A DNA stretch of 30,470 nucleotides, from NCBI GenBank assembly GCA_046497275.1, contig JAWOFX010000115.1, positions 1 to 30,470 on the forward strand, written 5' to 3'. Under the pieces are notes generated by a model. That model saw only the letters and a program-made list of their open reading frames with translations. It was not told the DNA's origin and searched no databases. Of the stretch, positions 7,116-20,389 are shown one piece after another (the first letter of the stretch is position 1; each line of letters begins with the position of its first letter). The translations under genes and the position numbers were made by a program. This stretch comes from Promethearchaeia archaeon (lineage in GTDB: Archaea > Asgardarchaeota > Lokiarchaeia > Sigyniarchaeales > SOKP01).

Positions 7116-7730
7116 ATGACAGAAAGAGCCCCTGTAAAATTATTTAATCAATGGTCCTTTGATGATGTGGAAGTAAAGGATTGGACCCTTGAACGATATA
7201 TCAATCTTAAACCAATTATTATTCCCCATAGTTGCGGACGCCATAATAAAAAAACATTCTGGAAAACGAAGAAGGTAAACATAATCGAGAGATTTATTAA
7301 TCGATTATTGGCACCTGGATTTATGGATTCCAAAATAAAAGGTCATAAAAGTTCATATCAATCGGGTAAGAAGAATCGTATATTGAAAGCAATTAAAGAT
7401 GCGTTCAGACTTATTAATTTAAAAACTGAAAAAAACCCAATTCAAGTGTTAATTGATGCGATTTGTAATAGTGCGCCTCGAGAAGAAACCACAAAAATTG
7501 CAATGGGAGGTATCTCCTATGCAAGTGCCGTTGATATAGCTCCACAGAGACGAGTAGACTTAGCCATCAAATTTATTGTGCAAGCTATTGGGAATCGGAC
7601 ACATAATAATATAAAAAGTTTTGGAGAAAACATTGCCCAAGAATTAATGATGGCAGCTCAAAACAGTCAGGATTCTCGTGCAGTGAAGAAAAAGGACGAA
7701 GTGGAACGAATAGCAGTTTCCGCTCGATAA
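7116..7730 (+). CDS. rps7: 30S ribosomal protein S7 (uS7)
   Basis: NPIQVLIDAICNSAPREETT, AVDIAPQRRVDLAI, KKKDEVERIAVSAR. Confidence 0.97.
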   Translation: MTERAPVKLFNQWSFDDVEVKDWTLERYINLKPIIIPHSCGRHNKKTFWKTKKVNIIERFINRLLAPGFMDSKIKGHKSSYQSGKKNRILKAIKDAFRLINLKTEKNPIQVLIDAICNSAPREETTKIAMGGISYASAVDIAPQRRVDLAIKFIVQAIGNRTHNNIKSFGENIAQELMMAAQNSQDSRAVKKKDEVERIAVSAR

Positions 7731-7939
7731 ATATTTTATTAAATTCTCTTTATTACCTTAACTATTATTTATAATTTCACTATCTCTCATTCATAATTTA
7801 TAGCATATCACCCCTATATTATTAAATATGTTATTAGATTAATGAGGAATCAAAAGTTATAAGCTAATTTTTATATAATCAAAAAACATATTATTTTATA
7901 AGCGAGTTTTAAAATTAGGTAAGGTAGATAATAATAGGT

Positions 7940-9919
7940 ATGGGTTCCGACAAAAAGATTTCTGAAACTTTGGAAAAACAATTAAAAGCGATAGGGCAGA
8001 AAATCAGATTAGATCTGTTAAAAAATTTACATCTTTCTGATACGGCCTTATCATTCTCAGATCTTCAAAAATCAATAATGCTCTCAGAGTCTAATTCTGT
8101 TAATCTTACATTTCATCTGAATTCGCTTAAAGAGGCTAAGTTAATATGGGCGAGTAAAGAAGGGTATCATATAACAGATATTGGAAAGCAAATACTTGAG
8201 AAAGTAATAGATATCGAACACATCATAAATAAAAAAAATAAGAATTTAGTTATCAGAACTTCTAAATATTCAACTGAACCCTTCAATATAAAAAACGTTA
8301 AAGAATATTTGATGCGAGAAGCAGATATGGATCCTTTTCTTGCAGATCAAATGGCTAAACTTGTGGAAAAAAGATTATCAGAGACAAACGTTGAGTATCT
8401 AACTGCCCCTCTAATGAGAGAGTATATTAATGCTATTTTATTAGAAGAAGGTCTTGAAGAATTTCGACATAAATTAACTCGATTAGGAATCCCTCCCTAT
8501 GATGCTGAAAAGTTATTTGATATGAATTCTGTAGAACCTATGGATTATATTAAAAAGTTAGGTTCAGAAAGTTCTGAGCAATTTCTCTTGTTAAATTTAT
8601 TACCGAAAAAGCTCGCTGATCTTTATTTATCTAATAAAATCGCTTTATTAAATTTGAATACATGGTCGCTGAGGCCCTTGAGTATTTTTTTGAATTTTGA
8701 GACGATTCTTAATAACTCATCTCAACACATTCAAGACCCTTCTTTAGATTATACAAAATCACATAATAGAGCTTTAAATATTTACTATTTTCTTCAAGGA
8801 TTAGCGCCTTTTTTTTCTAATAATGTATTACTCTATAATTTTGCCTCTCTATCCTCCTACATTAAAAATAATGCGGACTTGACTATTTTTATAAATACTT
8901 TTCTTTCTCTTGTTCGATGCTTAAATAAATCTTTTCAATCGAAACATGCATTTTCTTTGACTAATTCAAAATTACAGCAAGACTCTCAACCTTCAATTTT
9001 TCATAGAATTGTTTTAGAATTAAAGGATTATTTAGATAAATCTAATCGAACTCATAATAGCTTTTTAAATTTAATGCCACAAATATTAATTGATTATACC
9101 TCTGTAGATAAGAAAGATATCGAATATTTTTTTAATTCACTATTCCTTAAATATGGCTCACCAATTTTTTTTGATGGGACACAAAGCTTAATTAATTCTG
9201 ATTTAATTAGTTCAAGCAAAGAGATTTTATCATTTCCAGGGGAAATAGTTTTAGATAAGGTTTTAATTAATCTCTATTCTATTGCTCAAGAATCAAATCG
9301 AAATGATTCAGTATTTTTTGAAATATTGAATCAACGTGTAAATTCTGTTTTTTCCTTATATGACTATAAAAAAAAATTTGTAGAAAGAAAATTAAAAAAT
9401 TCGAGTTTATGGAATAAATTTCTTGAAAATTTTTTGAATTTTAATAAGAATGAATGGACCTTGAGATCAATTAAATCAATAAGTTTCCTTGGACTTAATG
9501 AAGCTGTAAAATCTCATTGTGGAATTGAACTTGACAGAATAGAATCGAGTCAAAAATTTGCTTTCAAAATTCTAAACACGATGAAAGAGATAATCACAGA
9601 AAGGAATTCTCTCTATAATGAGAAGTTTTGTTTATCTCAACCTCACCAGGGATCTTATTTGCAAAGTATTGATGATGGATATAATGAATCTATTGACTTA
9701 GATATTAATACTGAAAACAATCTGAGTTTGCTTATACGGAAAAGTTCAAAATTAACATTAGATGAAAAAATAGCCATTTATAGAAAATTTAGTAAAGTAA
9801 TAGATGGGGGGTTTTTAGTTTCAGTGAATGATGAATATTCAGAACCTAAAAAGGCTCAACAATTATTTAAGACTATAATGGACTCAAAACTCCTTGCTTT
9901 TAATATTTGTTACAATTAA
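7940..9919 (+). CDS. Winged-HTH (ArsR-like) + ATP-cone + degenerate class III ribonucleotide reductase (NrdD)-like fusion protein
   Basis: N-terminal wHTH (RLDLLKNL..LSFSDLQ..LTFHLNSLKEAKLI..GYHITDIGKQIL), ATP cone (VIRTSK..EPFN..LTAPLMREYINAILLEEG), NrdD-like core segments (SISFLGLNEAV, FAFKILNTM, RKFSKVIDGG). No C-terminal Zn/glycyl-radical domain. Confidence 0.75.
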   Translation: MGSDKKISETLEKQLKAIGQKIRLDLLKNLHLSDTALSFSDLQKSIMLSESNSVNLTFHLNSLKEAKLIWASKEGYHITDIGKQILEKVIDIEHIINKKNKNLVIRTSKYSTEPFNIKNVKEYLMREADMDPFLADQMAKLVEKRLSETNVEYLTAPLMREYINAILLEEGLEEFRHKLTRLGIPPYDAEKLFDMNSVEPMDYIKKLGSESSEQFLLLNLLPKKLADLYLSNKIALLNLNTWSLRPLSIFLNFETILNNSSQHIQDPSLDYTKSHNRALNIYYFLQGLAPFFSNNVLLYNFASLSSYIKNNADLTIFINTFLSLVRCLNKSFQSKHAFSLTNSKLQQDSQPSIFHRIVLELKDYLDKSNRTHNSFLNLMPQILIDYTSVDKKDIEYFFNSLFLKYGSPIFFDGTQSLINSDLISSSKEILSFPGEIVLDKVLINLYSIAQESNRNDSVFFEILNQRVNSVFSLYDYKKKFVERKLKNSSLWNKFLENFLNFNKNEWTLRSIKSISFLGLNEAVKSHCGIELDRIESSQKFAFKILNTMKEIITERNSLYNEKFCLSQPHQGSYLQSIDDGYNESIDLDINTENNLSLLIRKSSKLTLDEKIAIYRKFSKVIDGGFLVSVNDEYSEPKKAQQLFKTIMDSKLLAFNICYN

Positions 9920-9943: not shown

Positions 9944-10867
9944 TTATTCCTCACTCATCAATTCGGCAAGGATTGCTTTTCTCATATGTAACCCATAACC
10001 TGTTTGCTTAAAGTATACTGCTTTTTCAGATTCATCAATGGTTGGCGCAATTTCATTTATCCTAGGTAATGGATGCAATAATTTGAAAACCTCTTTAGTC
10101 GATTTCAGATCTTTACGATTAAATACATAAAAACTTTTCACCCGTTCATACTCTTCTAAGTCCGCGAAACGTTCTTTTTGAATCCTGGTTACATATAAGA
10201 CATCTAAAATATCTAATATTTTTCTATAATTCGTTAATTCTTTAAATTTCATTCTCCTCTGTTGATAAAGATAATCTTTATATCTACCCCGCATTTTCAA
10301 TTCATCCGGGCTAATAAAATAAACATTCACCTCAAAATTTGATAATAACATCGCTAGAGAGTGGACGGTTCTCCCGTATTTTAAGTCACCCATAATCCCT
10401 ATATGAAGCCCATCCAATGTGCCAACTTCTTCCCTAATCGTTAATAAATCCAATAAAGCTTGTGTTGGGTGTTCTTTACTTCCTGATCCGGCGTTGATAA
10501 TGGGAATTTGAGCAAATCTAGCTGCCATTTTCGCAGATCCTTCCATGGGATGACGAATGACAATACAATCACTATAATTTTCAACAGTTCTAATAGTATC
10601 AGCCAAACTTTCTCCTTTTTTTATAGATGATACATCTCCAGACTGGAATCCGATCACGCTCCCGCCTAATCTATGCATAGCAGACTCAAAACTCAATCTG
10701 GTTCGAGTAGATGGTTCAAAAAAAAGGGTCGCTAAAATCTTTCCTGCAAGAATATTTGAATTCTTAACCTCGATCATTTTATGGCCTTTTTCTAGCAAAT
10801 ATTCAATATCCTCTCTATTGAAGTCTCGAGCACTAATTATTCCCTCTTTAAATTTCTCTCTAAACAT
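9944..10867 (-). CDS. pyrB: Aspartate carbamoyltransferase catalytic subunit
   Basis: FFEPSTRTRLSF, KKGESLADT, INAGSGSKEHPTQALLDL, YVTRIQKERF, HPLPR. Confidence 0.98.
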   Translation of the reverse strand: MFREKFKEGIISARDFNREDIEYLLEKGHKMIEVKNSNILAGKILATLFFEPSTRTRLSFESAMHRLGGSVIGFQSGDVSSIKKGESLADTIRTVENYSDCIVIRHPMEGSAKMAARFAQIPIINAGSGSKEHPTQALLDLLTIREEVGTLDGLHIGIMGDLKYGRTVHSLAMLLSNFEVNVYFISPDELKMRGRYKDYLYQQRRMKFKELTNYRKILDILDVLYVTRIQKERFADLEEYERVKSFYVFNRKDLKSTKEVFKLLHPLPRINEIAPTIDESEKAVYFKQTGYGLHMRKAILAELMSEE

Positions 10868-11111
10868 ATATCTAAAACCTTTTTTTAATATTATAATTAT
10901 TATTTTTTTAATTCTAATAATATTTTTTATTATTCTGTTAAATTATTCATATTTAACAATAATTATTTGTCTCGAAATTGGTATTGAATAGTCAGATCAT
11001 TTTATATAAATGCATTTTAGTACAACTAGAATTAAAGGAACTAAGAAAATTTAAAATCTATAAATCACTATAAATACTAAGTTTAACAATTATAATAATT
11101 GAGATAGAACT

Positions 11112-11672: not shown

Positions 11673-12032
11673 TTAAATTATCTTAACATTTTCTAAAGGT
11701 ATCCACCCTGCTTTATTAGCTTTGTTTGAAACCCAAATCCATTCACTTTCTTCGAATTCAATTATAAATTCTTCACCTTTCTTAACATTTAGTTCAATAG
11801 CATAATAATCTCTGAGTGCTGTCGCCTGAAGCTTTTCTCTGTCTATTTCTAGAAAATATTCTGGAATCCATCCTACATTTTCTTGCTTAGTTTTACACCA
11901 AACCCAACCTATCCAATTAGTTTCTCTAAACTCTACTTCCATTGTTTCTCCCTCTTTAACTCTGATTGGATCAGAAGTAGATGCTTTATAGTCTTTAATT
12001 ACTACACATTTTTTTTTAGACAAGTTCTTCAT
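11673..12032 (-). CDS. Tandem SH3-domain protein
   Basis: Two repeats of the SH3 pattern: VIKDY..IRVKEGE..GWVW..GWIPEYFL and ALRDY..ELNVKKGE..EWIW..GWIPLENV. Confidence 0.85.
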   Translation of the reverse strand: MKNLSKKKCVVIKDYKASTSDPIRVKEGETMEVEFRETNWIGWVWCKTKQENVGWIPEYFLEIDREKLQATALRDYYAIELNVKKGEEFIIEFEESEWIWVSNKANKAGWIPLENVKII

Positions 12033-12506: not shown

Positions 12507-12830
12507 TTACTTTTCAAGCAGTTCTTTCTTTAACTCATATAGTTTTCGGTAATATTTGAAGTTCAGTTTATTCATATCTTGAATTATTTGAGCATCAATT
12601 ACCTTTTCACCACTTGTTTTTATGCGTAATTCACCTATCACATTTATTAAATCTCCTTCATCAAATTTTAATTCCATATCTTTTAATTTCACGGGGATTT
12701 GTCCAGATTTATCGTCTAAGACGAAGGAGCTCTCATCCCCGATATCCTTAATATAACCTGTTATTTGAATCTTTAAATCCTCATTCTGAATATCGTTTAT
12801 AATTCTCTGTTTTGCAAATTGATTTTCCAT
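12507..12830 (-). CDS. Single OB-fold protein, RPA14/RPA3-like replication protein A small subunit
   Basis: IQITGYI..FVLDDKSGQI..GDLINVIG..IDAQIIQDM followed by a C-terminal helix; replication-gene context. Confidence 0.7.
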   Translation of the reverse strand: MENQFAKQRIINDIQNEDLKIQITGYIKDIGDESSFVLDDKSGQIPVKLKDMELKFDEGDLINVIGELRIKTSGEKVIDAQIIQDMNKLNFKYYRKLYELKKELLEK

Positions 12831-13954: not shown

Positions 13955-15130
13955 ATGATGAGTTCGGAATCAATTTCTCCAGAATTAATTCAGCATTATC
14001 CATGGCTTCCTTCATTAAAGAAGGTATATGAAGATATCGGCAATCAAGATCCGTTAAAATTTACGATGAACGTTCTTTCAAAACAAAAGAATAATCTTAA
14101 AGAGAGAATCTTAAACCTCTTTGAAGCAGTATTCAATAATATTGAATTTATAGAGAATTATCAAATTGATGAAACAAATATTTATCTCTACTTAATGTTA
14201 AGAATTTTATTATTCATCCTTAATAATGATATTTTAACCAATCGAATAGCAAATTTATATTCGAAAATCCAATATGATGAACTATTAGATGAAAATGATT
14301 TTAATCTTTACAAAATCCTCCAAGATCTAAATTTAGATATTAAATATTACCAAAATCCTATTCAATACCGTGTAAATAAAATAAAGGATCAAACAGAAAT
14401 ACAAAAAACAAATTTCCGAATTCACTATATTGATTATTTAAAACTATCTTCAAATTTGAGGGATGAGTATAGAAAATTAGTTAATAATCCCCTTTCAGAG
14501 GGGTATGTCTTTATTCTAAAAAGAAGATTAGTACGTCTTCTTCAAGAATACGTCCGTGGTAAATTTTTGGAGTTAAAAGAAAAAGATAAACAAAATCTTG
14601 AGCTACTTAAGTCTAAACTGCTCGAGATTGAAGAATTTGAACATATTTATAATATAATTAAAAATCAATGGGAATTAATTAAGGAGGAATACGATTATTC
14701 AATTGATTTTAAATTTAAGGAAGGAGCAGAGATATCAACCATCTTTCCTCCATGTGTGAAAAATATACTTTCTCAAGCGAAGGAAGGACAAAATTTAACT
14801 CATAATGAAAGGTTGTTTCTAACATTTTTTTTACATGCATTAGAATATCCTGTTGAAAAAATAGTTGATATCTTTTCTACTTTGCCAGATTTTGACAGAG
14901 ATAAAACCACTTACCAAGTAGAGTTTGCAAAAAAGAAAGGTTACGATCCTCATTCATGTGAAACCTTAAAGTCATTAAGTTTATGTAAGGCAGAAAAATA
15001 TAAAGATGAATTATGTTTAAAGGGATATTACTCCAAAAAATTAGATAAGACAAGAAAGATTAGACATCCACTTTTTTATGTAAGTTTTAATCAATTTAAA
15101 TTGTCCAAAGATAAAAATGACCGATCATAA
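13955..15130 (+). CDS. priL: DNA primase large subunit
   Basis: HYPWLPS N-terminus, FPPCV..LTHNERLFL, 4Fe-4S Cys set (PPC, HSC, SLC, ELC), RHPL. Confidence 0.93.
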   Translation: MMSSESISPELIQHYPWLPSLKKVYEDIGNQDPLKFTMNVLSKQKNNLKERILNLFEAVFNNIEFIENYQIDETNIYLYLMLRILLFILNNDILTNRIANLYSKIQYDELLDENDFNLYKILQDLNLDIKYYQNPIQYRVNKIKDQTEIQKTNFRIHYIDYLKLSSNLRDEYRKLVNNPLSEGYVFILKRRLVRLLQEYVRGKFLELKEKDKQNLELLKSKLLEIEEFEHIYNIIKNQWELIKEEYDYSIDFKFKEGAEISTIFPPCVKNILSQAKEGQNLTHNERLFLTFFLHALEYPVEKIVDIFSTLPDFDRDKTTYQVEFAKKKGYDPHSCETLKSLSLCKAEKYKDELCLKGYYSKKLDKTRKIRHPLFYVSFNQFKLSKDKNDRS

Positions 15131-16391
15131 GTTTTTAAAACGTCTTTTTCAAGCCTACTATAGAGAAAATAAGGAAAAAATTCCATTAATTAGTTCTTTT
15201 ACTCAACGAGAATTCGGCTTTATCCCATGGAAAGAAGAGACTATGATGATACGGCATATAGGATTTAATGATATAGATGGGCTAAAAACGTATTTTATTA
15301 ATAACGCTCCAAGACATGCATATTCAAGTGGATCATTATATCTCATGCCTGAGAATTCGGATATGGATCAAAAGCAATATATCGGATGCGATTTGATAGT
15401 AGATATTGATGTTGACCATTTTTATACGCCATGTAAAGAAGATCATGATATATGGATTTGTAAAGACTGCGATACTATTGGAAAAGGGATGACGAAAAAA
15501 TGTGATAAATGTGGAAGTTTAAAGCTTAAAACAATTAATTGGATATGTGATGAGTGTTTAGATAGCGCTAAAAATGAGATTAAAAAATTAATATATGATT
15601 TTCTCATTCCTGATTTTGCGATACAACCAGAAGAAATGCATATTGCCTTCTCTGGACACAGAGGCTATCATTTAAAGGTTGAAAATAAAAGAATTAGAAC
15701 TCTCGATAGCGACCAAAGAAGAGAAATTGTAGATTATTTGACAGGTCATAACATTTCTTTTGAAATCCTTGGGTTGGAAAAAAGAGCCTTAAATATTTAC
15801 GGACTAATCCGTGAAAATTTAGACTGGTCCAGAAAAATAATAAATAAAATGATCAATATGCTTCAAACCTATTCTGATGAGCAGTTAACAAATTTTTTAA
15901 AAAGAATTGGATTGAATTCGAATGTGATAAAAAGTTTCTTAAATTCTAAAGACAATTTTTTATATACCCTTAAAGTTGATGATCATAACTTATGGAGCAT
16001 AGAGGGCTTTGATATAATCACATGGAAGAAATTTTTAAGGGGTATTGTTGATGAAGTGGGTGTGGAATTAGATGAACCAGTCACTATTGATATTCACAGA
16101 TTAATCCGATATCCGGGGACTTTACATGGAAAAACAGGATTTAAGGTTCAAGAATTACTAATTGACGAATTAGAAGCATTTAATCCCTTAAATGAGACGA
16201 GAGATGATCTAGATCCTATTATTTTCAGGAGTTCTGAAAATACACATAAAATAAAAATTATTGAAGATAAAGTCCCCCAAACCAGAATAAAAGGAGAGAC
16301 ATACGGTCCTTATGAAAATGGTGAGATTGTTGAAGTTCCAAATCATATTGCAATCTTTCTCTTATGTAAAGAGGTTGCTGTGTTAGAATAA
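15117..16391 (+). CDS. priS: DNA primase catalytic (small) subunit with Zn-ribbon insertion
   Basis: REFGF, DLIVDIDVD, FSGHRGYHL, DEPVTIDIHRLIRYPGTLHGKTG; overlaps priL by 14 nt. Confidence 0.95.
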   Translation: MTDHKFLKRLFQAYYRENKEKIPLISSFTQREFGFIPWKEETMMIRHIGFNDIDGLKTYFINNAPRHAYSSGSLYLMPENSDMDQKQYIGCDLIVDIDVDHFYTPCKEDHDIWICKDCDTIGKGMTKKCDKCGSLKLKTINWICDECLDSAKNEIKKLIYDFLIPDFAIQPEEMHIAFSGHRGYHLKVENKRIRTLDSDQRREIVDYLTGHNISFEILGLEKRALNIYGLIRENLDWSRKIINKMINMLQTYSDEQLTNFLKRIGLNSNVIKSFLNSKDNFLYTLKVDDHNLWSIEGFDIITWKKFLRGIVDEVGVELDEPVTIDIHRLIRYPGTLHGKTGFKVQELLIDELEAFNPLNETRDDLDPIIFRSSENTHKIKIIEDKVPQTRIKGETYGPYENGEIVEVPNHIAIFLLCKEVAVLE

Positions 16392-18999: not shown

Positions 19000-19055
19000 G
19001 ATTGAAGATTATTATAATTAAATATTTAAAATAAATAAAACAAAGGTAATTAAAA

Positions 19056-20389
19056 ATGGCCGATAAAAAACCACATTTGAATCTAGTTATAATAGGGCAT
19101 ATTGACCATGGTATGCTATAACCGTTTCGGTTAATTAGCCCATAAAGTCAACCATGATGGGTGCCCTGTTAATTAAAACAGGTGCGGTAACAGACAGAGA
19201 AGCACGAGAATTAGAAAAAATTGCGAAAGAATTTGATAGAGATTCATGGTCATATGCATACGTATTTGATAAATTGAAAGAAGAACGACAGAGAGGAATT
19301 ACAATAGATCTTGCCTTTAGAAAATTCGAAACACCCAACAAATATTTCACAATCATTGATGCCCCTGGTCATCGAGACTTTGTCAAAAATATGATCACTG
19401 GTGCAAGTCAAGCTGATGCAGCAATCTTAGTAGTTTCCGGAAAGAAAGGAGAAATGGAAGTTGGTATCGCAGCTAATGGTCAAACCCGTGAGCACGCCTA
19501 TTTAGCACAGACCTTAGGCGTTAAACAATTGGTTGTGGCCATTAATAAGGCAGATGTCTGGGATTATGATGAAGATAGATATAAAGAATGTGTACAATCA
19601 GTATCAGCTCTTTTAACAAATATTGGTTTTCCTGTAAAAAAGATTCCGTTTGTACCTGTAAGTGGATTACTTGGGGAGAACCTTACTGAAAAAACCGATA
19701 AAATGCCTTGGTACGATGGTCCTAGTTTAATAGACGCAATTGATGAATTTCAATTACCAGAAAAACCGACTGGTAAACCCTTACGAGTACCTATTCAAGA
19801 TGCATATAGAATTAAAGGTACTGGTGTGGTTCCAGTGGGTAGGGTTGAAACTGGTGTATTAAAAAAAGGTGACCAAATTCTTATTCAACCAACCGGCTTT
19901 AAAGGTGAAATTCGAAGTATAGAGATGCATCATGAAGAAATTCCCGAAGCAGAACCGGGAGATAATATAGGATTTAGTATCCGAGGTCTTACATTAGAAG
20001 ATGTACACAGAGGAGATGTTTTAGGACGACCTGATAATCCACCAACCGTTATTACACCTAAGGGGAGTTTTACTGGACAAGTCATTGTAATTTGGCATCC
20101 TACTGCAGTTGCACAAGGTTATACTCCAGTTGTTCATGCTCATACCGCTCAAGTTGCAGCGAAATTCGTTGAGCTTAAAAAGAAACTTGACCAGAAGACG
20201 GGCGCTGTAATCGAAGATAACCCGAAGTTTATCAAGAAAAACGAAGCTGCTATTGTCACGTTAAGTCCTATCAAGAAATTGTGCATAGAGAAATATGAAG
20301 AGATTCCAGAGATGGGTCGATTCGCGGTACGCGACATGGGTAGAACCGTAGCTGTTGGTATAGTAAAAGATCTTGAAACTGGAGAGTAA
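19056..20389 (+). CDS. tuf: Translation elongation factor EF-1 alpha, two exons 19056-19113 + 19146-20389, 433 aa after splicing
   Basis: MADKKPHLNLVIIGHIDHG|KSTMMG P-loop, ERQRGITID, DAPGHRDFVKNMITGASQAD, NKAD, GRFAVRDMGRTVAVG. The ORF track misses exon 1 and starts at 19154. Confidence 0.97.
19114..19145 (+). other. 32-nt BHB-type intron in EF-1alpha
   Basis: Insert TGCTATAACCGTTTCGGTTAATTAGCCCATAA, with TAA at 19119-21 and a frameshift. Central helix ATGG(19108-11)/CCAT(19140-43), bulges TA^T and AA^A, inner hairpin, outer exon-exon helix. Removal gives GGT AAG TCA ACC (GKST). Confidence 0.92.

Follow-up and report, generated by a model that had tools for sequence, protein, structure and literature searches.

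We analyzed a stretch of 30,470 nt (positions 1–30,470 of contig JAWOFX010000115.1, assembly GCA_046497275.1; hereafter, the window) from the lokiarchaeal genome of a Promethearchaeia archaeon. In this AT-rich window (G+C content of ∼30%), an open reading frame (ORF) at positions 7940–9919 of the forward strand, which we call gene X, encodes a protein of 659 residues (P0001). Gene X follows the block rpoA1-rpoA2-L30e-nusA-rps12-rps7, the last gene of which, rps7 (7116–7730, +), was identified by family scan and synteny, and it faces tail-to-tail the gene for the catalytic chain of aspartate carbamoyltransferase, pyrB (9944–10867, −; Pfam OTCace_N and OTCace), with 24 nt between the two stop codons. 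The initial annotation of the window had described X as convergent with pyrB and as occupying the place after rps7 where elongation factor 2 normally sits. Both observations hold, and elongation factor 2 is encoded on another contig. It had further proposed that X is a pseudoenzyme repurposed as a regulator similar to the bacterial repressor NrdR. We find that X is a pseudoenzyme derived from a duplicated class III ribonucleotide reductase (RNR) and that it is probably an undescribed archaeal counterpart of NrdR.

The reading frame of X is open throughout and ends in LLAFNICYN. Its translation, scans with Pfam and NCBIfam models, an AlphaFold2 (AF2) model, and alignments with the class III RNR NrdD bear out the three parts that the initial annotation had read in one protein: a winged helix-turn-helix (wHTH), an ATP-cone, and a diverged, catalytically dead NrdD body. 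The wHTH (residues ∼10–95; positions 7967–8224, +) is of a DUF7347/ArsR-like type with an F-H-L..L recognition helix. Residues 15–88 match DUF7347 (PF24038) with 35.5 bits, above the gathering score of 27.6, the model shows an H-H-H-β-β topology, and H59 and L63 of the recognition helix are invariant across 57 family members. With the ArsR/SmtB model of NCBIfam (NF033788), X scores 22.6 bits, under the cutoff of 55. The ATP-cone (residues ∼100–175; 8237–8464, +) is followed by a linker and the N-terminal helices of the NrdD body (residues ∼176–260; 8465–8719, +), a segment delimited by alignment and conservation that homodimer modeling predicts to be a dimer interface. The remainder of the RNR barrel (residues ∼261–659; 8720–9916, +) was assigned by Pfam and alignments: residues 431–651 align to positions 272–499 of 562 in the NRDD profile (PF13597) with 53.9 bits (gathering score of 26.2), and the GG strand is kept at residues 623–624.

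The ATP-cone itself is a weak Pfam match (PF03477, residues 104–174) in a conserved segment, and we accepted the call because of its likeness to the cone of the genome's own NrdD, the scores of its relatives, and its predicted fold. Over the cone and the N-terminal body, X is 26% identical to the genome's real NrdD (E value of 1e-13), and the cone of that enzyme scores just 24.9 bits against PF03477. Relatives of X reach 27.8–36.9 bits, over the cutoff of 25.8. In the AF2 model, the segment forms the β-hairpin and helices of the cone fold (strands 104–106 and 112–114; helices 117–128, 132–148, and 156–169). The central block of X is 32% identical to the same NrdD, and X is a paralogue of that enzyme with an added wHTH.

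We mapped the catalytic positions of the T4 and T. maritima NrdDs onto the genome's NrdD and from there onto X, and we also aligned a second canonical NrdD and NrdDs from the Protein Data Bank (PDB). The equivalent of T4 Cys79 lies in RPFC in the genome's NrdD and in RPLS in X, where it is a Ser; in the short-form family, this column holds S, G, A, or N, with a lone Cys among 23 representatives. The thiyl Cys of the finger loop (T4 C290), part of SQCCRK or MGCR in NrdDs, gives way in the X family to a SLINSD-type sequence or a gap. This assignment was made by direct reading of the block and by profile alignment, the MAFFT columns being unreliable here (two reference NrdDs were misaligned with each other). 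A PDB search with X as a single sequence returned no match; the family profile gave an NrdD alignment, and on the S. thermophilus NrdD, the NCC and MGCR of the enzyme face non-Cys residues or an insertion. The sequence of X stops just behind its last barrel strand, where NrdD goes on into the Zn ribbon and glycyl-radical domain, and the initial annotation had placed the end of X at about the same point. A motif scan found neither an R..G[YF] glycyl-radical motif nor a CxxC Zn-ribbon motif anywhere in the protein. None of its four Cys occupies a catalytic position, and the NrdD equivalog model TIGR02487 gives 46.5 bits against a cutoff of 326. Because both active-site Cys, the Zn ribbon, and the glycyl-radical loop are gone, X, judged by its sequence, is incapable of nucleotide reduction.

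The AF2 model of X, built on 57 relatives, has a mean predicted local distance difference test (pLDDT) score of 84.5 and a predicted template modeling (pTM) score of 0.77. When it was searched with Foldseek, the top matches were all class III RNRs (E values of 1e-18 to 1e-10), led by the cone-bearing NrdDs of P. copri and S. thermophilus, and the model has the ten-stranded barrel of the RNR fold. For two copies of residues 180–659, homodimer prediction gave an ipSAE (interaction prediction score from aligned errors) of 0.84, against 0.07 for the best control; the runs agreed on at least 96% of contacts, with a partner pLDDT of at least 81. Among proteins whose structures were solved as pairs, 20 of 30 pass this mark; among those solved as single chains, 1 of 23 does. 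The predicted interface comprises residues 180–219, 240–245, 266–291, and 316–331, and it corresponds to the N-terminal helices from which NrdD builds its dimer and its specificity site. Since NrdD dimers have already been solved, the pass may reflect mere likeness to them.

A word-indexed search returned at least 486 relatives of X, nearly all 630–670 residues long with the same three domains, and an exhaustive search of representatives at 50% identity returned 667. By source names, the family spans Jord/Freyarchaeota, Baldrarchaeota, Lokiarchaeota, Culexarchaeia, Bathyarchaeota, and Nitrososphaerota, and its members are labeled "anaerobic ribonucleoside-triphosphate reductase," "ArsR family transcriptional regulator," or hypothetical. 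Among genomes related to that of the window, 38 of 41 carry X (16 of 16 of high quality; 23 of 24 of the same family), with one full-length copy each. In one Nitrososphaerota order, which includes ammonia oxidizers going by the organism labels of its members, we found X, again one copy each, in 58 of the 61 genomes searched. Mean column identity peaks in the ATP-cone (0.75) and in the linker and dimer helices (0.74), takes a middle value in the wHTH (0.66), and falls to its minimum (0.35) at residues 251–430, the barrel half that would carry the active site. Purifying selection on X thus acts most strongly on the cone and dimer helices, a pattern expected for a sensor and not for a catalyst. 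The residues that never vary are concentrated in the cone and linker (R106, S108, E127, Y153, R160, E161, N164, R176, R181, G183, and P185); those of the cone, R106 through N164, suggest a conserved site, for which ATP/dATP binding is predicted. The weak and partial NrdD signal of X could be taken for that of a decaying pseudogene or an annotation artifact. This explanation is refuted by an ORF of 630–670 residues that is intact in more than 100 species at 36–58% identity, by fixed synteny, and by the invariant residues; the lineage-specific decay that the initial annotation had considered is likewise contradicted by purifying selection across more than 80 species.

A second tier of relatives, 700–800 residues long, combines the wHTH and cone with a match to almost the whole NRDD profile (up to 280 bits); a C-terminal Zn ribbon is often present as well. 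In these long forms, the finger-loop Cys is also gone, as is the glycine motif in nearly all. The genome of the window (98.9% complete) holds elsewhere the complete NrdD and activase that the initial annotation had suggested looking for: one canonical NrdD on contig C32 (704 residues; NRDD score of 488 bits; CPHC...CPSC Zn ribbon; RITGY) and an NrdG2-type activase on contig C44 (155.7 bits; cutoff of 131). No large subunit of a class I or class II RNR and no match to NrdR (TIGR00244) was found in it. X itself has no Zn ribbon at its N terminus, the module that together with a cone defines NrdR in TIGR00244. These findings bear on whether X could be an active enzyme, either a split RNR with its radical domain supplied in trans, as the initial annotation had considered, or a carrier of new chemistry on the RNR scaffold. 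The barrel fold and GG strand are kept, and a few long-form relatives (e.g., P0203 and P0237) have R..GY-like C termini. However, neither X nor any long form examined has either Cys of thiyl chemistry, conservation is lowest in the catalytic half of the barrel, and the genome already encodes a complete NrdD and NrdG, so that we hold an active enzyme to be very improbable.

The searches also brought up two further types of gene. Several family relatives carry a second NrdD-like gene of ∼605–640 residues (L140, G009:C126; L141, G007:C37; L142, G014:C29) that shares 53–65% identity with the real NrdD across its N-terminal half; it is absent from the genome of the window. Many related genomes contain small open frames of 135–200 residues that match only the ATP-cone of X and may be stand-alone cone proteins (e.g., G001:C3:11457-11735, G020:C14:6798-7082, G002:C2:48594-48875, and G013:C3:14342-14689). 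The same search detected none in the window's own genome.

A pointer to a possible target came from the start of the X coding sequence (CDS). Comparing 80 orthologues, we found the 9-mer CCGACAAAA at CDS positions +7 to +15 (7947–7955, +) in 75–76 of 80 species. The codon before the motif's Asp is TCC in 46 cases, GCC in 19, ACC in 8, and CCC in 3: the residue varies among Ser, Ala, Thr, and Pro, and the two C bases are fixed. The Asp itself is GAC in 76 of 76, against 18% GAC elsewhere in the same genes, and C is the third base of just 12% of comparable codons. Since the residue changes and the bases stay fixed, the constraint appears to lie on the nucleic acid and not on the protein. The same motif occurs upstream of nrdD, where 12 of 14 close orthologues carry a conserved (C)CGACAAAA 74–127 nt before the ATG, once in tandem; the copy in the window's own genome lies at G000:C32:16025. 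We therefore treat CCGACAAAA as a candidate operator common to X and the nrdD leader. In the window, a TATA-like element, TTTTTATATA (7868–7877, +), read directly from the sequence, lies 79 nt before the motif. This distance is the same in 45 of 62 orthologues and 72–80 nt in 60 of 62; at nrdD, it is 71–88 nt. These spacings would place the motif ∼45–50 nt into the presumed transcripts of both genes. In the sister family, CGACA copies occur upstream of long-form X, either direct or as inverted pairs.

The initial annotation had suggested looking for palindromes shared by nrd and pyr genes. The shared element that emerged at X and nrdD is asymmetric, and no palindrome shared with pyrB was found. 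Upstream of pyrB in Loki, CGACA appears in only 7 of 79 loci, at scattered positions, so that regulation of pyrB by X is without support from the motif. CGACA was also absent upstream of nrdG, and no CGACA-type motif was found upstream of X in the Baldr, Culex, Jord, and P0150 loci. A wider CCGACAAAA regulon was considered and dropped, as its remaining intergenic copies lie ahead of genes with no evident relation to one another (those for an Lrp regulator, TFB, and TrmB, among others); if CCGACAAAA is an operator, the regulon in this genome consists of X and nrdD. In the same-order genomes without a detected X, the ORF ahead of nrdD is glutaredoxin-like and the motif is missing, which fits co-occurrence; with n = 3 related genomes, we did not count it as evidence. 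Upstream of the second NrdD-like gene described above, we saw no clear CCGACAAAA motif. No Rfam family matched the window or the nrdD locus, and RNA folding at the 5′ end of X gave no significant signal (z = +1.1).

A second conserved element lies in the spacer between rps7 and X. Alignment of this spacer from 80 species revealed a box, ATATCACC-N3-ATATTAT in the window (7804–7825, +), made of two ATATCA[C/T] units 11 bp apart. Its consensus, ATATCACC-N3-ATATTATC, is the most information-rich element of the spacer; the box is present in 71 of the 80, mostly 120–123 nt before the start codon, and a TFB recognition element (BRE)/TATA-like element follows ∼50 nt downstream. It offers another reading, in which X is a DNA-binding regulator that acts through the ATATCA[C/T] box on itself, pyrimidine genes, or other genes outside RNR synthesis, with CCGACAAAA serving some other factor or acting in RNA as an element that the X and nrdD transcripts share. 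The richness of the box, the first rank of X's own site in a whole-genome scan with its position weight matrix (PWM), the location of CCGACAAAA inside presumed transcripts, and the deep synteny with pyrB all favor this reading. On the other hand, the box has no copy upstream of nrdD or of pyrB, which has a distinct box of its own, the other PWM matches lie near unrelated genes, and X adjoins RNR genes in two other phyla. We judge a regulon of this kind unlikely. Extending the box to a regulon was in any case abandoned, because the next-best matches (near a Xer-type integrase, major facilitator superfamily transporters, and a PUA gene) share no coherent theme. The second-best match genome-wide (G000:C116:1714-1735; L145) lies between a thioredoxin-reductase-like gene and the Xer-type integrase, 57 nt before the latter, and may be due to chance. 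The box of pyrB (about TTATTTATAAATTTTAAATTTTATTAGTTCTG) is conserved ∼110 nt before its start codon in most Loki species (window 10868–11057; loci L041–L120).

We compared the surroundings of X across lineages. The arrangement nusA-rps12-rps7-X, convergent with pyrB, is kept in 79 of 80 Loki species loci and in every family relative examined. In Baldrarchaeota, Culexarchaeia, and one further lineage, X and pyrB are also tail-to-tail; there, pyrI diverges from pyrB and V-ATPase genes lie farther out. In another lineage, X is convergent with pyrB-pyrI. The sister family has long-form X directly 3′ of pyrB in the same direction, after a gap of 50–180 nt. In Bathyarchaeota, X lies 138 nt upstream of a real nrdD (RVTGY, two CPRC motifs, SQCCRL, and RPFC), and in the Nitrososphaerota order, the class II RNR gene nrdJ lies 3′ of X in the same direction, 106–820 nt away, in 25 of 30 loci. 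The neighbors of X in different phyla are thus genes of RNRs or of pyrimidine synthesis. Two side observations concern these loci. In the window's genome, pyrI is unlinked from pyrB (G000:C69:1491-1766; L033), and it stands beside pyrB, near the X homologue, in Baldrarchaeota, Culexarchaeia, and other lineages. In Culexarchaeia, Baldrarchaeota, and one other lineage (L037, L158, and L159), the gene immediately 5′ of the X homologue, read in the same direction, encodes an HTH_3 (XRE-type) protein of 236–242 residues, which may act as a conserved regulatory partner.

In the Nitrososphaerota order, NGTCAA/TTGACN hexamers occur upstream of X in 19 of 30 loci and just past the X stop codon in 20 of 25, compared with 4–5 in control windows of coding sequence. 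They sit between the TATA element and the X start and at the head of the X-nrdJ spacer. The pattern was picked post hoc, and the control differs in base composition, so that the hexamers are suggestive, a lead only.

These neighborhoods and the predicted dimer could also be explained if X were a noncatalytic protein partner, either a regulatory or poison subunit of NrdD or a modulator of aspartate carbamoyltransferase, with a wHTH that serves protein contacts or is vestigial. In favor of this, the interface through which NrdD dimerizes is strongly conserved in X and predicted to pair, the tail-to-tail link of X and pyrB recurs across phyla, long-form X of the sister family occupies the usual place of pyrI after pyrB, and pyrI is unlinked from pyrB in this genome. 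Against a partner role, the wHTH is conserved (0.66) and its ArsR-type recognition helix is invariant at H59 and L63; X of the Nitrososphaerota type adjoins a class II RNR, and the one genome of that order that was checked has no NRDD-family gene other than X and hence no NrdD to pair with; and a motif constrained at the nucleotide level in X and nrdD is what a DNA-binding regulator predicts. A protein partner therefore seems to us a rather improbable role for X.

We consider it somewhat probable (∼0.6) that X is a transcription regulator analogous to NrdR, one that forms a dimer, senses nucleotides, and controls both its own gene and RNR expression. This reading draws support from the motif common to X and the nrdD leader, the RNR genes next to X in other phyla, the lack of a detected NrdR, and the conservation of cone and dimer helices. 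Of what the initial annotation had proposed, the loss of catalysis is thus established by alignment, and the regulatory part is something that we infer from the motif and the RNR neighbors. In the proposed mechanism, X would dimerize through the NrdD-type helical interface and so present two wHTH heads. The ATP-cone would sense ATP/dATP, and the kept interface region, the specificity site in NrdD, may sense deoxynucleoside triphosphates (dNTPs) as well. Nucleotide load would then shift the oligomeric state or geometry of X and change the occupancy of CGACA-type sites, which lie ∼45–50 nt past the points where transcription of X and of nrdD presumably begins. Their position inside the transcribed region would suggest repression by roadblock, and the outcome would be autoregulation together with control of RNR synthesis, making X a functional analogue of NrdR.

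Several points weigh against this interpretation. DNA binding, nucleotide binding, and regulatory action by X are all things that we infer. The cone scores 16.1 bits, under the gathering score of 25.8, and its KR motif reads IR, as it does in the real NrdD of the lineage; given both, ligand binding by X is a prediction only. Exact copies of CCGACAAAA are not enriched in the genome (25 matches; ∼21 expected), so that the two sites are marked by phylogenetic conservation only. The motif is asymmetric and lies in transcribed sequence, where an RNA-level role or another binding factor is conceivable. X may instead bind the ATATCACC..ATATTAT box, of which nrdD has no upstream copy, and CCGACAAAA may be recognized by some other factor. 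Finally, the related genomes in our counts are nonindependent samples.

An extension of the regulator reading, which we regard as possible if rather doubtful, is that the dead body still binds dNTPs or NTPs at the specificity region and perhaps at the substrate pocket. X would then be an RNR mimic that reads both ATP/dATP and the balance of individual nucleotides, reporting what the real enzyme would experience, and that couples this reading to RNR expression and possibly, through its pairing with pyrB, to pyrimidine synthesis. The coupling to pyrB could work, for example, by interference between convergent transcription. Since no motif ties pyrB to X, the link between the two genes is one of synteny only. 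If this extension is true, it would describe a widespread archaeal circuit of nucleotide homeostasis, possibly ancestral, with no bacterial or eukaryotic equivalent.

We next set X beside known systems. NrdR is the RNR-specific repressor of bacteria (PMC9110341, PMC12176259) and is rare in archaea (PMC9110341). Like NrdR, X combines a DNA-binding module with an ATP-cone, is linked in the genome to RNR genes, and has (putative) sites both within its own gene and at an RNR gene. NrdR, however, has ∼150 residues made of a Zn ribbon and a cone, whereas X has an ArsR-like wHTH and a whole dead NrdD body of ∼480 residues with a dimer interface. NrdR acts at paired 16-bp boxes at the promoter, in contrast to the candidate site of X, an asymmetric 9-bp CGACA-type motif within the transcribed region. 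Homology between the two proteins is confined to the cone. With class III NrdDs (P. copri 8P23 and 8P2C, S. thermophilus 9D3X, T. maritima 4COI, and T4 1H78), X shares the fold, the N-terminal cone, and the helical dimer interface; unlike them, it lacks the thiyl Cys, the second active-site Cys, the Zn ribbon, and the glycyl-radical motif, and it has an extra wHTH. With ArsR/SmtB and DUF7347 regulators, the likeness lies in the N-terminal 90 residues, which match DUF7347 and bear the S/F-H-L..L signature of the recognition helix. ArsR/SmtB regulators have a dimerization helix, whereas the effector part of X is an RNR scaffold, and X stays under the ArsR cutoff of NCBIfam.

Regulators derived from enzymes, in which the scaffold of a metabolic enzyme is reused as a ligand sensor, include PyrR, BirA, and PutA. 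To our knowledge, examples of this type mostly keep catalysis, and none is built on an RNR. Full-text searches (DUF7347, PF24038, RNR pseudoenzyme, and HTH) found no description of the architecture of X or of an RNR-derived regulator, and a large paper on RNR phylogeny makes no mention of HTH fusions or inactive class III members. The novelty of X would lie in a job like that of NrdR done by a protein of other origin, with another DNA-binding domain and a whole reductase scaffold as sensor.

Other features of the window stand apart from X. Interruptions resembling mini-introns occur near the 5′ ends of two essential genes. In rpoA1 (1560–1700), GHFGH is followed by an in-frame insert of 30 nt with a stop codon, after which IELARPV resumes, and in the gene for elongation factor 1α (19040–19160), a short frame-shifting insert separates GHIDHG from KSTMMG. 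The segments 11673–12032 (−), 12507–12830 (−), and 15117–16391 (+) show features typical of Asgard replication neighborhoods: an SH3-domain protein, a small ORF with a subthreshold match to the Ten1/CST oligonucleotide-binding (OB) fold beside TFS and PCNA, and a primase small subunit with a C-terminal Gins51_C domain, after which comes a GINS51 gene.

The family of X corrects a recurring misannotation. Many members are named "anaerobic ribonucleoside-triphosphate reductase," a misleading label that can imply anaerobic dNTP synthesis in metabolic reconstructions of aerobic ammonia oxidizers and of Asgard archaea. How the synthesis of DNA precursors is controlled at the gene level is an open question in most archaea, and the X family, nearly universal in Lokiarchaeia (38/41) and in one Nitrososphaerota order (58/61), is a concrete candidate; if the ammonia-oxidizer labels hold, cultured carriers of X exist. 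If the regulator reading is true, X would be the first RNR-based regulator and a clear example of how an essential radical enzyme can be reused as a sensor.

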